Virus record (IMG/VR): IMGVR_UViG_2526164661_000013
Strand: one strand, 5' to 3'
Source: a virus
Taxonomy: Duplodnaviria; Heunggongvirae; Uroviricota; Caudoviricetes
DNA: 26,382 nucleotides
Each line of letters begins with the position of its first letter. The stretch's first letter is position 1. The notes under the pieces are model-generated. The model did no database searches, was not told the DNA's origin, and saw nothing but the letters and a program-made list of their open reading frames with translations. The position numbers were made by a program, and so were the translations under genes. Below, piece after piece: positions 98 through 26,382 of this stretch.

Positions 98-673
98 CTA
101 CGGCAGTGCTGGCCATTCAATATCCTGTGCAGTTGACGTATCAACACGGTTCAGCAATACCCGATACTTTTTCCATGCTTCCAGCAACGAGATTTCTTCC
201 TCCGTTGCAATTTCCAGATCTGCAGCATCCTGAAGCGGCGCAATATGCTCACTGGCTACCTGCATCAGGTTGTTTTTTGTTTCTTCCGCCTCCCGGATCC
301 GGAACAGTTTTTCTGCTTCCGTATCCTTCACCCAGGCTGTGCCGTTCCACTTCTGAAACTCCCCTTCCGGCGATAACCAGGTAACATTTTCCGGTAACGG
401 ACCGAGTTCAGAAATAAATAACGCGTCGCCGGAAGCCACGTCATAAACCGTTTTACCCCGATGATCTTCAACGAGATGCCACGATGACTCATCACTGTTG
501 AAAACAGCCACGAAGCCAGCCGGAATATCTGGCGGTGCAATATCGGTACTGTTTGCTGGCAGACCTGTATGAGGCGGAATATATGCATCACCTTCACCAA
601 TAAATTCATTAGTTCCGGCCAGCAGATTATAAATTTTTATGGTCCGTGGTTGTTCACTCATTCTGAATGCCAT
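98..673 (-). CDS. tfa: Tail fiber assembly protein (lambda Tfa-like chaperone), 191 aa
   Basis: Translation [39 protein letters not shown]... is near-identical over its length to lambda Tfa as I recall it. The start codon overlaps the stf stop as TAATG (671-675), suggesting translational coupling. Confidence 0.9.
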
Positions 674-4432: not shown

Positions 4433-7400
4433 TCAACGAATACTGATGCCGGAAGCGGCTTTTTTGGTCACAATCACCGTACAGTCGGTGATATTGCCTG
4501 CCCCCTGATTGCCTTTCTGGAAAATCTTAAACTCCAGAGTGACGCTACCACCACCACTAGGCATATCAATAACTGCACTGTAACTACCGGGAATGGCCCC
4601 TTTAGTTTCTCTGGATGCGATTAATACGCCGTTTTTGCGAACTTCAAAACCATAACCCGTGTATCGCGTGCCTCCTGGGTTATTTCCGCTCCCCGGATCG
4701 TCATACGCTATACCGTTAAAAATAATGGGCGGAATAATAATCTGGCGGTCAAAGTTATGATCATCGCTGATGGTGACTGTAACCGTACCGTTTGGTGTTT
4801 CCGTGTTACCCCACGTACCGACTTTTTTCGGGAAGGCTTTTGATACAGCTTTAACGAAATCCCCTCTGACCTGGGTCGCCTCCAGCATGCCCTTAATCGT
4901 ACAGTTCTGGTTAATCGTGACATTGTTGAGCGTTCCTGAGTTCGCATTCACACTACCACTGATATCCGCATTTTTAGCGGTCAGCTTTCCGTCTGATGTC
5001 AGGGAAAATACCGGAGGACTGCCACCGCTGGTAATGGTGGGGGCTGTCAGGCGCTTCAGGAACACGTCGTTCATGAATATCTGGTTGCCCTGCGCCACAA
5101 ACATCGGCGTTTCATTCCCGTTTGCCGGGTCAATAAACGCGATACGGTTAGCGGCAACCAGAAACTGGCTCAGCTTGCCTTCCTCCGTGTCCTCCATGCT
5201 GAGGCCAATACCCGCGACATAATGTTTGCCGTCTTTGGTCTGCTCAATTTTGACGCCCCACATGGCATTCCATTTATCGTTAGCGTCCTTCCACTCTTTC
5301 GAAAACTCATCCAGTCTGCTGGCGTTATCCTCCGTCAGATCAACTTTTTCCAGCAGCTCTTTACCGAGATGGGATTCGGTTATCTTGCCTTTGAAAAAAT
5401 CCAGGTAACCTTCCGCATCATCGCTCGCCCGACCGACGGCCTCCACGAATGCCGATTTGCCAACGGTGTTCACACTGCGGATATAAAAGTAATAATCATG
5501 GCCCGGTTTGATATTGATACTGGCGGCTATCCAGTACAGCCCCGTGCCAAGGTAGCGGGCTGTGGTTTCAACCTGCCTGATATCGGTAATCCGCGTTTCC
5601 GAGAACCAGAACTCAAACTGTACCGTCGGATCATAAACCGCAAGATGCGGCGTGGCAGTTATCTGAAAATAGCCCGGCGTCAGCTCAATCCGCGACGGCG
5701 CTGCCGGGGCGGCAATCCGGAACGATACCGACGCCGGATCGCCCTGCTGTCCCCGGGCATTTACCGCCCGGACCGTCAGCGTGTAACGCCCCAGCGCCAG
5801 CTGCCTGAAGCGGTAAGTGGTTTCCGTCGTCCGGGCCGTGCTGACCAGCCGCTCACTGCCGTCATCGGCGGCCACGGTCAGGCGAAGCATAAAGCTCACA
5901 CCCTTCACTACCTTCGGCGTGTCCCAGCGCGCCAGCACCTGATACTCCCCACTGTCTGCGGTGACTTCTGCGGTCAGGTGCTGCACCGCTGGCGGCGTGA
6001 CACCATTCACCGTGCCGCTCTGGTCGCCGTCAAAGTGCGCTCCGTTATCCACGATGGCCTCTTTTTCCGGCACATGCTGCACGGCAGTGATGGCATACGT
6101 GCCGTCGTCGTTCTCACGGATACTCACACAGCGGAACAGGCGCTGGCGCAGCGTCGGCAGCTTCAGCCCCCACACGCTGTATCCGGCAACGCCGTCAGGA
6201 ACACGGCTCACTTTCACCTTCACGCCGTCGGTGACGGACTGAACCTCCACGCTGACCGGATTGCCACTTCCGTCAACCAGGCTTATCAGCGTGGTACCGG
6301 AGGATGGCAGCGTGATTTCACGGTCGAGCGTCAGCGTCCGGGTCTGGCTGTTCACCGCCAGCACACGCCCGCCGGTGCTGATCCCCGCATAGTCATCATC
6401 ACAGATTTCAATGACATCGCCCGGTACATGGCGAAGCCCTTCTGCGCCCACGCTGAAGTCCACGGTCTGCGTCTCCAGCAGCTCCGTTTTAATCAGCCAC
6501 AGCCCGGCGCGGTGTGCCTGCCCCCGGCTGGTACAGCCAAAGGCATCCATCTTCGTGACGTTACGACCATAACGGACAATGGCCTGCGTATCCTCCACAA
6601 GCTCTGTCGCCGTCTCCCAGCCGTTATTCGGGTCAATCCAGTTCACCTCAACGGCATTATGACGGTCCTTCAGGGCGCTGAAGCTGTAGCGGAACGGCGC
6701 GCCATCATCCGGCATCACCACATTACTGCGGTTATAGGTCCACACCTTATCCGATGGCCGGTCCTGCACGAACGTCAGCGTCTGCCCGTTCCATACCGGC
6801 ATACAGCGCATCGCCGAGCAGAAATCACTGAGCACATCCCACGCCTTGCGCTGCGTGGTCAGGTACGCATTACAGGTGATACGCGGTTCCGTGCCACCAA
6901 AGCCATCCGGCACCGACTGGTCGCAATTCTGGCCGATGACATACAGCGCCCATTTATCCACATCCGCCGCACCAAGACGTTTCCCCATGCCGTAGCGCGG
7001 ATGGGTCAGCATATCCCACAGACACCAGGCCATGTTGTTGCTGTATGCCGGTTGTAACGTTCCGTCCCAGATACCGCTGTATTGTCGCGTCTGCGGGTTA
7101 TAGTTCGACGGCACCTGCAGAATGCGCCCGCGAAGATGATAATTACGGCTCACCTGCTGGCTGCCGAACTGCTCCGAATCCACCTGTACGCCGACCAGTG
7201 CCGTGTTCGGGTAGCACTGTTTCACATCGATGATTTCGGTGTATGACGACCAGAGCGTTTTGTTCTGCAGCTGGTCTGTGGTGCTGTCCGGCGTCATCCT
7301 GCGCATCCGGATATTGAACGGGCGCGGCGGCAGGTTACCCACCACCACCGAGGCCAGATACTGTGAGGTGGTTTTGCCTTTAATGGTGATGTCTTTTTCC

Positions 7401-14059: not shown

Positions 14060-14803
14060 TTAACCTGCTGCGCTGACAGTCACCGCAGTCACAGCCACAA
14101 AATTCCCGTCAGCGGTCATGCCCACAATGCTGACACTGCCCTGCTTCACGCCTTTTACCGTGGCCACAAGTCCGTTCAGGGTAACCGTGGCAGTCTGTGG
14201 ATCTGACGAATGCACACTGATCGCTTTGTCACTGGCTCCGTCAGGTTTTACTGTAAAGGTCAGCGTGGTGGTTGCTCCCACTTTTACACTGGCAGACGCC
14301 GGTGATACTGTCAGCCCGGTAACGCTCACGGTTTCAGTGCCTTCCTCTGCCAGATACGGACGCCCCACACCGCTGATTTTCACAGTGCGGGTCATCACGT
14401 CTTTTGAGGCAATGGTTTTACCCAGTGAGCTCAGCCAGCCACGGAAAACATCAACAGTGCCGTTGGGATATTTGATACGAAACGCGCAGACTTCACCGGA
14501 GTCGAACAACTGAACCAGTTTTTTCTGCCCGCTGTCACCCGGACGCCAGGCCAGCGTCGCCGAAGTATCACCAACGGATTTCTGCCCCTGGGTTGTCGTT
14601 TTCCAGTCTGCATCTTCATCATCGAGATAAGTGTCATCTTCTGCATCAGCGGTCATTTCGCCAGGTTGCAGATCCTTCACCATCGCAAGACGCAGCCAGT
14701 CAGTGTCCGACAAAGGGTTCGCAAACGCATCGCCGTTGCCGGTATACATCCAGAACGTCGTCCCCGCACCTTTCGTCTTTGCCAGTGGATTTGGTGTGGT
14801 CAT
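14060..14803 (-). CDS. V: Major tail protein V with C-terminal Ig-like domain, about 247 aa from the MTTPNPLAKTKGAGTTFW start
   Basis: Resembles lambda gpV (MPVPNPTMPVKGAGTTLW...FPNGTVDVFRGW...). The ribosome-binding site AGGAGGTG lies just upstream of the ATG at 14801-14803. Confidence 0.9.
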   Translation of the reverse strand: MTTPNPLAKTKGAGTTFWMYTGNGDAFANPLSDTDWLRLAMVKDLQPGEMTADAEDDTYLDDEDADWKTTTQGQKSVGDTSATLAWRPGDSGQKKLVQLFDSGEVCAFRIKYPNGTVDVFRGWLSSLGKTIASKDVMTRTVKISGVGRPYLAEEGTETVSVTGLTVSPASASVKVGATTTLTFTVKPDGASDKAISVHSSDPQTATVTLNGLVATVKGVKQGSVSIVGMTADGNFVAVTAVTVSAAG

Positions 14804-22271: not shown

Positions 22272-22765
22272 TACTCCTCCTGCTGTAATTCCTCCTCATC
22301 ATCCGCACCTGCTTCAGTCACCCGCAGGGCTACCTGATCGCGCAGATCATCAATAATGGACTGAACACGGCTCACAGCGGCAGGCTGCAGACCGCAGTCA
22401 CGTTCAAGAATATCCGGTAATGTCTCCAGCACCTGCACGACCGCTTTTGCCCAGATGGCAAACTCCCGTCTGACATCACTGGCCGGAATGAGTTGTGCCG
22501 TTTCCTGTTCGAACTTAAGACGCTCACGTTCAGACTGATACCAGGCTTTGCGCTCATGTGCGTCCATTTCGCCTTCTGCAACCGGCGGTGGTAATGCCAG
22601 AAATGCCGACACAATATCAACCACCCGATAAAGCTTGAGGTTGCTTTCATGCCCCCCTGCAACGGGTAGATTTTGCAGCCTTGCCGCAGCAGTCTGGCGA
22701 TGTACACCTGACAGTGCCGCCAATTGACTGATATTCAGCGTCAGATTTTTTAACTCTCGATCCAT
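22271..22765 (-). CDS. Terminase small subunit (Nu1-like), 164 aa
   Basis: Position immediately upstream of and coupled to the large terminase. N-terminal segment LNISQLAALSGVHRQTAAARL is helix-turn-helix-like. Acidic C-terminus. Lies about 180 bp downstream of the putative cosN. Confidence 0.75.
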   Translation of the reverse strand: MDRELKNLTLNISQLAALSGVHRQTAAARLQNLPVAGGHESNLKLYRVVDIVSAFLALPPPVAEGEMDAHERKAWYQSERERLKFEQETAQLIPASDVRREFAIWAKAVVQVLETLPDILERDCGLQPAAVSRVQSIIDDLRDQVALRVTEAGADDEEELQQEE

Positions 22766-22869
22766 ACCCGCTCCAGAATGTTTTAAACATGCATCTTGCG
22801 AACGACTTTAGGCAAACGGTGTTAGTGATGAACAAAAAACAATCAAAATCGACACCACAAAAATAAAAA

Positions 22870-22895
22870 TACTGTAATATCAATCTATTACAGTA
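22870..22895. promoter_or_regulatory. 10-bp perfect inverted repeat TACTGTAATA-n6-TATTACAGTA containing an IHF consensus match, in the cosB-equivalent region
   Basis: Read directly. 22878-22890 tatcaatctatta fits the IHF consensus WATCAANNNNTTR. It lies between the putative cosN and the terminase small-subunit start, as the I1 site does in lambda. Confidence 0.35.
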
Positions 22896-22929
22896 GTGGT
22901 GATGACGGATGAAATTTCAAAAACTAGCC

Positions 22930-22965
22930 TTTTTCCGCGACGCTCCCGCCCCGTGGCAGGGACCC
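22930..22965. other. Putative cos site (cosN-like nicking region)
   Basis: Minus strand reads CCACGGGGCGGGAGCGTCGCGGAAAAAGGCTAGTTTTTGAAATTTCATCC, resembling lambda ...ACGGGGCGGCGACCTCGCGGGTTTTCGCTATTTATGAAAATTTTCC. The distance to the terminase small-subunit start (about 180 bp) is the same as in lambda. Confidence 0.5.
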
Positions 22966-23317
22966 CCACTGGGAGGACCCGACAGCCTGACAACCGTGAC
23001 GAGCATCTGAAACAGAGCGTTACATAATGGCATGGGGATAATTCAGAAGGACATCACAGCATGCCCACACAAATTAGTGTGAGTGTCCTGTTTCTTACTA
23101 CGCGCAGGACTGACGAGCATGAGGGGAAAATACGCGAACCGAAATGCCTTATCTTCAGAAATGCAGCCGGCATCCGAACTGGACGATATTGTAAATTCAC
23201 CTAAATACGAGGCATTGCTGTAGTTGAATTGCAGTACTGTATTAGCCTTACAGTGACAGAATACGATATTGACTCTGTCACTTGTGAAATGGTCAGAATG
23301 GTTAGCAGTTATGGTGA

Positions 23318-23524
23318 TCAGTCAACCACCAGGGAATAATCCTTCGTATTCTTATCGTGCTTTACTAACGCGGCCTCAATTGCCCTGAATGCTTCCAGAG
23401 ATACTTGATGTTCTATACATGCAATTACAACATCCGGGTAACCCATCGAAATGGTGCTATTAAGCATAGTTTTTACACGAACCTGCTCCTGGGAGGGGGC
23501 ATCAGTGTATTGATCTTTATGCAT
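23318..23524 (-). CDS. Hypothetical small protein, 68 aa, in the cargo region
   Basis: ORF only; no family recognised with confidence. It lies in the lysis-to-cos cargo region of the prophage. Confidence 0.35.
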
Positions 23525-23821
23525 TTTGTCGCTCCATTCGTTTGCTCTTCACTTGCGGCTAAAAATATAACGTCAAATCACTCAGCATGAAAGAGTGAAA
23601 GTTTCAGCGCGTTTCCCTTACATAATCTGTCGTTTGTATTCTCTTCAGGCATACCGGAAAGACTAGGTATTGTCACACAACCAATACCATCGACAATCGA
23701 GATTTATATCTATTCAGTAATGTTTAAATATAACAAAACCCCGTAAAAACGAGGTTTATGGGTAATTTGTATTGTTGAATAGCATCTGATGAGAAATTGA
23801 TGCTAATACTATAAACATGCT

Positions 23822-23995
23822 AGATTAGATCAATCTTGATATCATAGCTTTCAAGACCAGTCATTTTTTCCCGTGCAGTAAACTGGATACTGGTAACTTC
23901 TTTCCCGGTCTTTTTCTTAAGCTCAATGATTTTTTTGTTATATATTCAGAAATATCTGCTTCTGTTTTTGTTTTTAACTCTTCAATGTTCATCAT
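23822..23995 (-). pseudogene. gnsB: gns-like gene (GnsA/GnsB family, 57-aa class) disrupted by a 1-nt frameshift in a homopolymeric A tract
   Basis: The ATG at 23990-23992 opens MNIEELKTKTEADISEYITKK, then the frame changes at the A7 run (plus-strand T7 at 23930-23936). The +1 frame continues IIELKKKTGKEVTSIQFTAREKMTGLESYDIKIDLI to a TAG at 23822-23824. Joined with A8, the product would be 57 aa and co-linear with GnsA/GnsB as I recall them. Confidence 0.6.
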
Positions 23996-24164
23996 TTCCT
24001 CTTTTAGTCTGTTATGACTGTCCTGGTACACAGTAGTGTCAATTATATGGAGCAAACGTATAAAAGATAAGATGAAACATCGCAATAATCAACATACGAC
24101 GGTCTAAATTTCACACAAACAGATAAAGATGATTATCATTTATTATCAATGCATTAGAATCAAA

Positions 24165-24356
24165 TCAATTCAAGAGTCTCATTGCTGCTTCCAGAATTTC
24201 TTCTGAAGTTACATGTCGATCCGCTGCTACATAAATGACTTTATGATCTCCGGTCAGAGATGGAAACCCTGCAGCCATTACAGTGAGGTGTGTTGTTTCG
24301 CCATTTGGATATTCACGCATGATGGTGTTAACTCCGGTCATCACTGGCACTACCAT
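24165..24356 (-). CDS. Hypothetical small protein, 63 aa, adjacent to the IS66 end
   Basis: ORF only. An in-frame stop 14 codons upstream means it is not an IS-truncated C-terminal fragment of a larger gene. Family not recognised. Confidence 0.35.
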   Translation of the reverse strand: MVVPVMTGVNTIMREYPNGETTHLTVMAAGFPSLTGDHKVIYVAADRHVTSEEILEAAMRLLN

Positions 24357-24446
24357 TGCTGGTTCAGAGTTAAAAAAACTATTATTTTTTTCATAATGTT
24401 ACCGTAATAGTAAGCGTGCAGCAAGAACCGTATTGACGGGGATGTG

Positions 24447-25985
24447 TTATTCAGTCGGCAGTGCTACGCGCCAGGGGAGCAGTTCGCCGACCCGGTTTAT
24501 CGGCCAGTCGGCTATGACGTCAAGGACATAGCGGAGGTAGCTTTCTGGCTCCACTCCGTTCAGTTTGCACGTCCCGATCAGGCTGTACAGCAGCGCTCCC
24601 CGCTCTCCTCCATGATCCGAACCGAAGAACAGGTAGTTTTTGCGGCCCAGACTGACCATCCGCAACGCATTTTCAGCGATGTTATTGTCCGCCTCAGCCC
24701 AGCCATCATCTGCATAGTACGTCAGCGCCGGCCACTGGTTCAGGGCGTATGCGAACGCTTTCGCCAGTTCTGAGTGTCGCGACAGGGTTTTCATCTTTTC
24801 ACGCAACCAGCTTTCCAGGGATTTCAACAGCGGTTTCGTTTTTCGCTGACGTTCAGCAAGCCGCTGCTCTGCCGGCATTCCCCTTATATCCGCCTCTATG
24901 GCGTACAACTGACCGATCTGCTCCAGGGCTTCTTCCGTCAGTGCTGACGGGATGCGGACGTGCACATCGTGGATCTTTCGGCGGGCATGAGCCCAGCAGG
25001 CAGCTTCCGTTATCCCACCATTGCGATACAGCTCGTTGAACCCGGCGTACGCATCCGCTTGCAGCACACCGCTGAAGCAGGCAAGATGAGTCTGCGGATG
25101 GATGCCTTTTCTGTCCGGGCTGTAAGCGAACCACACTGCAGGTGCCAACGCTGACCCGGCATTGCGGTCATCACGAACATACGCCCACAACCGCCCGGTC
25201 TTCGTCTTCCTATTACCCGGCAGCAGTACCTGGACCGGGGTATCATCGGCATGGAGTTTGCCGTCAGTCATGACATAGCCATGAAGCGCCTCTTCCAGCG
25301 GAGACAGCAGCCGGCAGCATGCATCCACCCAGCCCGACAGCAGTGAACGGCTCAGCTCCACACCTTGCCGGCCGTATATTTCTGACTGGCGATACAGCGG
25401 GGTGTGCTCTGCATACTTCGAGGTCAGCACGCGGGCCAGCAGCCCCGGTCCGGCGATACCCCGCTCGATGGGCCGCGAAGGTGCAGGTGCCTGCACGATG
25501 GCATCGCACTGAGTACAGGCATGTTTTTCCCGTACCGTCCGGATAACCCGGAAGGCACTACGCATCAACTCCAGCTGTTCGGCGGTATCCTCGCCCAGAT
25601 AGCTCAGTGAACCGCCGCAGTTCGGGCAGCACGGCGCCGCAGGCAACAGTCGCTTTTCGTCACGGGGTAGTGATTCAGGGAACGGCTTACGGGTGCGGGT
25701 CTGACGCAACGGACGCTGTACAGCCGGGTCATACACCCTACCAGTCAGCGTATCGCTCTCTTTCTGAAGCCGGTTCAGATCGGCTTCCATTTGTGCGATA
25801 CGGCGGGAGACTTTTTCGGAACGACTGCCGAAGTTCATCCGGCGGAGTTTATCCAGCTGCGCCTGCAGATGGTCTATTTCGCGCTCCCGGTTGCTCAGCT
25901 TTTCCTGCAGGGCGTGGATCAGCGCTTCCTGTTCGGCCAGGCGCTGTTTCAGCAGGAAGATGTCGTCAGAAGAGATGTCGTTCAT
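24447..25985 (-). CDS. tnpC: IS66-family transposase TnpC (orf3), 512 aa
   Basis: N-terminal leucine-zipper-like coiled coil ([24 protein letters not shown]), the zinc-finger-like CPNCGGSL...CTQCD motif and a DDE-type core are typical of IS66 TnpC. Confidence 0.9.
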
Positions 25986-26034
25986 AAGCCCGTATTTTAC
26001 CGGGCTTATTCTGTGACAACCAGGATAAAGAGAT

Positions 26035-26382
26035 TTACAGCATGGTCAGGGAGGTCAGCAACCGCTTGGGCTGTCGCCAGTCGATACCTTCCAGCAGCAT
26101 CGCCAGCTGCGCCTGCGTAAGGAACACTTTGCCATCACGGGCTGACGGCCAGGCGAAGCGCCCACGCTCCAGCCGTTTGGTCAGGAGGCACAGTCCGTCA
26201 CCGGTGGACCACAGCAGTTTAACCTGACTGCCGCTGCGGCCCCGGAAAATGAAAACATGGCCGGACATGGGATCGTCTTTCAGCGCCGTTTGTACTTTCG
26301 CAGCCAGGCCGTTGAAGCCATTTCTCATATCGGTGATACCGGCAACCAGCCAAATTTTGGTCCCGGAAGGTAACGGGATCAT
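26035..26382 (-). CDS. tnpB: IS66-family accessory protein TnpB (orf2), 115 aa
   Basis: [31 protein letters not shown]...[36 protein letters not shown] is characteristic of IS66 Orf2. The start codon is the last three bases of the window. Confidence 0.85.

Follow-up and report, generated by a model that had tools for sequence, protein, structure and literature searches.

Insertion sequences of the IS66 family encode tnpA, tnpB and tnpC in that order, with an ATGA overlap between tnpA and tnpB, and they have imperfect inverted repeats, some 20-30 bp long and tipped by GTAAGCG, and make 8-bp target duplications. These family features reportedly go back to Han and colleagues (2001) and to ISfinder, and the prototypes IS679 and IS66 are said to have gene order, ATGA overlap, GTAAGCG inverted repeats and 8-bp duplication alike. 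IS679 and IS66 are different elements of the family from the one described here and are likened to it by their layout. By the ISfinder convention, a copy with more than 95% nucleotide identity to a reference element is counted as an isoform of that element.

The closest described system is ISEc8. The copies in EDL933 (O157:H7; L0013/L0014/L0015), in ETEC H10407 and in Stx2 phages have in common a length of 2,442 bp and 8-bp target duplications, and the paper on pEntH10407 gives the three ORFs as L0013 (133 aa), L0014 (115 aa) and L0015 (512 aa) (PMC2762410). ISEc8 has also been documented in a lambdoid prophage, where, as stx2a::ISEc8, it breaks stx2A (PMC6776261). The Stx2-converting phage 1717 (FJ188381) carries the element in its replication region, as opposed to the intergenic site in a moron region that is described below.

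We analyzed a stretch of 26,382 nt from a viral record (IMG/VR IMGVR_UViG_2526164661_000013), here called the window. Its last 1,973 bp (24410..26382, minus strand) are homologous to named copies of ISEc8 and make up the tnpC side of the 2,442-bp element. With a probability of about 0.9, we read them as the end of an ISEc8 copy that transposed recently, in one strain only, into the gap between the ymcF/ynfQ terminator and ynfN, in the moron region of an mEp460/Qin-like lambdoid prophage.

Identity and boundary of the element

Two genes of the element lie in the window, both intact and both on the minus strand. The product of tnpC (24447..25985) is a DDE transposase of 512 aa, which covers the full Pfam profile DDE_Tnp_IS66 (PF03050; 9.6e-106), further matches Pfam zf-IS66, LZ_Tnp_IS66 and IS66_C (PF13005, PF13007, PF13817), and matches the NCBIfam IS66 transposase model NF033517 at 3.3e-138. 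It differs from WP_000998068.1 at a single residue, the rare substitution K259R. The tnpB gene (26035..26382) encodes the 115-aa IS66 accessory protein (Pfam TnpB_IS66, PF05717, 1.2e-38; NCBIfam IS66_TnpB, NF033819, 2.9e-35), identical to the RefSeq TnpB protein of the copies at loci L001, L023 and L027. As is usual for IS66 elements, tnpB stands directly upstream of tnpC on the same strand, and a spacer of 49 nt (25986..26034) separates the two.

The window cuts through ISEc8 at the tnpB start codon, and tnpA and the other inverted repeat lie beyond it. Contig AIGT01000015.1 (assembly GCA_000250075.2), which agrees with the window at 100% of the 6,936 nt compared, extends the element by a further 244 nt and breaks off in the 3' part of tnpA. 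The coding strand across the window end reads ...GCGATGATCCC, in which the tnpA stop and the tnpB start overlap as ATGA; in a near-identical copy annotated by RefSeq, tnpA and tnpB likewise overlap by 4 nt.

At the nucleotide level, the window element is 99.8-99.9% identical to many E. coli copies and 97.0-97.25% identical to the copies annotated as ISEc8 in Stx2 phages. When the 244-nt extension is included, identity is 99.86-99.91% to ETEC-type copies and to the sister copies in GCA_000250075.2, and 97.25% over 2,219 aligned nt to the feature "insertion sequence:ISEC8" in FJ188381, i.e., above the 95% that marks an isoform. The 1,973 nt inside the window match four sister copies in GCA_000250075.2 at 100%, so the differences from these copies fall outside the window alone. 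Given this identity to annotated ISEc8 and ORF sizes that match L0014 and L0015, the IS66-family element in the window is, judged by its sequence, ISEc8, a long-known member of the family. It resembles the ISEc8 reference in its 115-aa TnpB, its 512-aa TnpC and the repeat tips GTAAGCG...CGCTTAC. Its TnpC differs from that of the phage 1717 copy by 15 aa substitutions, and from the ETEC copies it is set apart by the private K259R and by a new insertion site.

The boundary of the element was set by comparison with other copies and not by the heptamer GTAAGCG, which is uninformative alone (the window has 2 matches, and chance would give 2.55). The 22-nt consensus of the inverted repeat, on the other hand, has a single match in the window, at 24410-24431, and none in 100 shuffles. 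Homology to copies in many unrelated flanks begins at window positions 24405-24410, where the few extra bases represent chance extension, while homology to the Stx2-phage copies begins exactly at 24410; the base equivalent to 24410 is also where the 2,442-bp "insertion sequence:ISEC8" of FJ188381 begins. In full copies, the ends align as GTAAGCGTGCAGCAAGAACCGT and, in reverse complement, GTAAGCGTACAGCCTGAACCGT, alike at 19 of 22 positions. The first of these is the tnpC-side terminal inverted repeat of the window copy (24410..24431, 22 nt) and the one repeat that this copy shows; its partner was observed in sister and related copies.

A preliminary description of this DNA had proposed an IS66-family element in the prophage cargo region, with complete tnpB and tnpC in canonical orientation and a terminus at 24410. 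Domain matches and homology bear out the element and refine its name to ISEc8, both proteins proved to be full length with ORF coordinates that are exact, and the terminus is confirmed by the start of homology, the FJ188381 annotation and the single match to the 22-nt repeat.

Insertion site and predicted far junction

Exact-sequence look-up of TerL and of the 63-aa ORF beside the element returned IS-free loci alone, and these were used as references for the empty site. The prophage is often found without the element, and 833 complete E. coli genomes match the flank (window 22700-24409) over at least 80% of its length. These genomes and all 14 of the IS-free loci carrying the flank stay collinear with the window as far as 24409. 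The sequence of the empty site is ...TTATTTTTTTCATAATGTTACCGTAATA/TGTGAGTATCCATCGACTAGACACTAAGCAAAAAAGCTCCCGAAGGAGCC... or, more briefly, ...GTTACCGTAATA/TGTGAG..., with the slash at the insertion point. Since the IS-free loci are collinear to 24409 and then continue with TGTGAGTATCC..., the target-site duplication would be CCGTAATA (24402..24409), precisely the 8 bp found immediately before TGTGAG at the empty site.

In KE48 (L002), read in the orientation of the window, the order is terL, terS (DUF1441), a 68-aa ORF, gnsB, ynfN, a 12-aa remnant and ynfQ/ymcF, followed by cspI, rzpQ, rrrQ, ydfR and the holin gene essD. The moron block is shared with mEp460, a viable lambdoid phage, whose record departs from the window to the left of 22832. 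The insertion point falls between the ymcF/ynfQ terminator and ynfN; the GC-rich hairpin at the end of ymcF/ynfQ is 35 nt away from it, and the ATG of the 76-aa YnfN of RefSeq follows 15 nt downstream. The genes of the element are co-directional with ynfN, gnsB and the terminase genes, i.e., with the late genes of the prophage, and the start codon of terS is 1,645 bp from the IS end. The lysis cassette should lie on the far, unassembled side of the IS.

The preliminary description had named the flanking 8 bp and had put the insertion at the edge of the cargo region, where lambdoid phages normally carry lysis genes and morons. On both points the empty sites agree with it, and they place the insertion among the morons that separate the lysis cassette from the terminase genes. 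It had further suggested that a lysis or cargo gene was disrupted or displaced, and had proposed a comparison with IS-free prophages. That comparison finds the insertion intergenic and no gene on the visible side interrupted, broken or displaced, so the suggestion of gene disruption finds no support.

In a simple insertion, TnpC would cut and join ISEc8 (IR-tnpA-tnpB-tnpC-IR, 2,442 bp) into a staggered 8-bp target. The far junction would then read ...GCTGTACGCTTAC/CCGTAATA/TGTGAGTATCC (i.e., ...GCTTAC/CCGTAATA/TGTGAG), or, in a longer form, ...CAGGCTGTACGCTTAC/CCGTAATA/TGTGAGTATCCATCGAC. The tnpA-side end would abut CCGTAATATGTGAGTATCC..., and the left inverted repeat (IRL) would lead into CCGTAATATGTGAG... 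beside ymcF and cspI.

Related copies behave in this manner. Perfect 8-bp duplications were found at eight of them: ATTTTTTT (L001), GAGGATAC (L024), TTTTTAAT (L025), GAACAGAA (L026), CGATAACC (L027), CCACTTTC (L031), CTGCCATT (L032) and AAACAATG (L033). Scans of genome, metagenome and viral contigs for the exact window junction and the predicted far junction found nothing for the window copy itself, and the sole match (L039, an IMG/VR contig, 14274-14332) is a junction of the type found in strain TW14425, which is discussed further below. The window junction is likewise absent from 5,426 complete E. coli genomes, in which the chimeric query for the far junction matched TW14425 alone.

A rare transposase allele and probable recent transposition

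The exact K259R form of TnpC was found by exact-protein look-up on only 10 contigs of a gene-position index. Five of them belong to GCA_000250075.2, where they represent five different loci, three of the five with intact duplications; in each of the remaining five, which come from other assemblies, it is the tib-locus copy that bears the allele. The rarity of K259R, with half of its contigs in one genome, points to recent strain-specific transposition. Six assemblies in all have K259R at the tib locus in common, and the tib copy was therefore the probable source of the strain-specific ones. Most simply, the substitution first appeared in the tib-locus copy and was carried to further sites by transposition within one strain; alternatively, it may have been spread by gene conversion between copies. 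If it was spread by transposition, then ISEc8 moved very recently, and the insertion in the prophage is peculiar to this strain, as one of a burst of at least five identical copies with the private TnpC allele.

We would like to note that the tib-locus ISEc8 itself (L023, L029-L030; ETEC H10407 and relatives) abuts other IS elements, namely a second IS66-family element in H10407 and IS21 in GCA_000250075.2. It has no target duplication, and IS-associated rearrangement therefore does occur in this lineage.

Possible effect on ynfN and gnsB, and alternatives to a simple insertion

The main consequence of the insertion would be 2.4 kb of extra DNA between ynfN-gnsB and upstream transcription. Foreign DNA of this length in a lambdoid late transcription unit could affect moron expression or the packaging length. 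A pattern scan detected no terminator-like hairpin between tnpC and ynfN, and read-through from tnpC into ynfN is therefore possible.

Both of the genes behind the element show changes in homopolymer length. In the window, ynfN is a 63-aa ORF (24165..24356, minus strand), whereas its RefSeq form has 76 aa and starts from an ATG at 24392-24394. The A-run at 24372-24378 has 7 A here against 8 in KE48 and TW14425, which puts the ATG of the 76-aa form out of frame and leaves the 63-aa ORF. A link between the 7-A run and the IS was considered and rejected, as the 7-A allele also occurs in IS-free loci and the run varies in length from 5 to 8. In gnsB (23861-23992, minus strand), the run of T at 23924-23930 is shorter by one than in IS-free loci (7 against 8); the gene is frameshifted after residue 21 and yields 43 aa against 57 aa, which makes it either a pseudogene or a homopolymer sequencing error.

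It might be argued that the insertion alters regulation, either by cutting ynfN-gnsB off from upstream transcription, of cspI or the late operon, or by driving these genes through tnpC read-through or a junction promoter. The geometry is favorable to such an effect, with a co-oriented IS that ends only 15 nt before the annotated start codon of ynfN, and with 37 nt from the tnpC stop to the IS end and no hairpin predicted in between. Nevertheless, we consider it unlikely. Along the minus strand, pattern scanning for an outward or hybrid promoter detected no sigma-70-like site at the IS end or close to it, and the count of promoter-like sites in the region equals the chance expectation from shuffled sequence. 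Moreover, ynfN already stands directly behind an intrinsic terminator in the IS-free state, and gnsB appears to be frameshifted here anyway. The earlier suggestion that the IS drives or silences the 63-aa ORF is accordingly a conjecture, with neither a promoter-like nor a terminator-like site detected by pattern scan at the IS end on the strand of the ORF.

Homopolymers also bear on whether the copy is functional. Compared with each of the sister copies, the 244-nt extension differs only by two 1-nt deletions, at IS positions 2108 and 2111 in tnpA (TT to T and GG to G), which would frameshift TnpA if real. The copy would then be defective and non-autonomous, mobile only with the help of sister copies. 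We regard this as quite unlikely, since each deletion removes one base of a 2-nt homopolymer close to the contig end and is probably an error of assembly, and since the flank too has two homopolymer-length differences from the reference loci, a pattern typical of sequencing or assembly error; all 1,973 IS nt within the window, for their part, match the sister copies exactly. The four homopolymer-run differences (the A-run, the T-run and the two in tnpA) could all be sequencing errors.

It is very improbable that the end at 24410 is instead a rearrangement junction without target duplication, produced by recombination between ISEc8 copies or by an IS-mediated deletion or inversion that separated the half of the prophage with the structural genes from the half with the lysis and early genes and left unrelated DNA on the far side: GCA_000250075.2 does have at least five identical ISEc8 copies able to recombine, the tib-locus copy has no duplication, and the contig ends inside the IS, to which point contiguity is covered, but of the four sister copies assembled in full, three are flanked by perfect 8-bp duplications, the visible junction lies precisely at the tip of the inverted repeat with an undisturbed flank, and the break of AIGT01000015.1 inside a multicopy IS is a usual and expected assembly artefact.

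A recent, simple transposition of ISEc8 thus remains our preferred reading. On this reading, the window holds a routine copy of a known IS in a routine place, ISEc8 in lambdoid prophages being already documented, and current knowledge of IS66-family elements and prophages is unchallenged. The IS does explain why the assembly breaks at this point.

Other insertions near the site and features of the prophage

The nearest counterpart to the window insertion is found in TW14425 (NZ_CP127265.1; L001, 8495-10937), where an ISEc8 with 1 nt of difference lies in the same orientation, in the same type of prophage and in the same stretch between ymcF and ynfN. It is 18 bp closer to ynfN, its TnpC has K259, and its duplication ATTTTTTT falls in the first codons of the 76-aa ynfN. 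As the junctions and the donor alleles both differ, the two insertions are independent. Of the 5,426 complete E. coli genomes, none but TW14425 has an IS66-type element in this setting.

Mobile DNA of other kinds is present close by. In several complete genomes, IS2 (IS3 family) lies inside ynfN, for instance at 3093-4317 of L040 (NZ_CP048107.1), so that the small ynfN region has taken up elements of more than a single IS family. In L014 (GCA_024768055.1, JAMJMZ010000001.1; ~5721-5815), a P2-like prophage with integrase, Cox and GPA replaces the cspI-ymcF side of the lambdoid prophage. Its junction falls within the hairpin of the ymcF/ynfQ terminator (core ...CCTTCGGGAGCTTTTTTGC), at a distance of ~40 bp from where ISEc8 is inserted.

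ISEc8 is otherwise not known to prefer particular insertion sites. We nevertheless considered whether, in this prophage family, mobile DNA lands preferentially in the ~60-bp stretch between the ymcF/ynfQ terminator and ynfN, on the basis of the two independent, co-oriented ISEc8 insertions 18 bp apart, the P2-like junction and the adjacent IS2; such a preference could reflect ISEc8 targeting of the local DNA or a feature of transcription termination. We hold it to be decidedly unlikely. With TW14425 the only match among 5,426 complete E. coli genomes, a strong hotspot is not supported, and the two known ISEc8 events, one of them in those complete genomes, give a weak hint of a locally favored target.

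Two further features of this prophage family may be mentioned. The block cspI-ymcF-ynfN-gnsB was found joined to either of two packaging modules (L004 and L012 versus L003 and L013), consisting of a DUF1441 terS with a 700-aa terL or of DUF3950 with a Nu1-type terS and a 641-aa terL. The presence of two packaging modules behind one moron block places a recombination boundary between the 68-aa ORF and terS. At the other end of the window, positions 132-330 (minus strand) match the Rfam family RF02111, "IS009", with 220.9 bits (gathering score 117), and this match falls within the region of a tail-fibre-assembly ORF (98-673).
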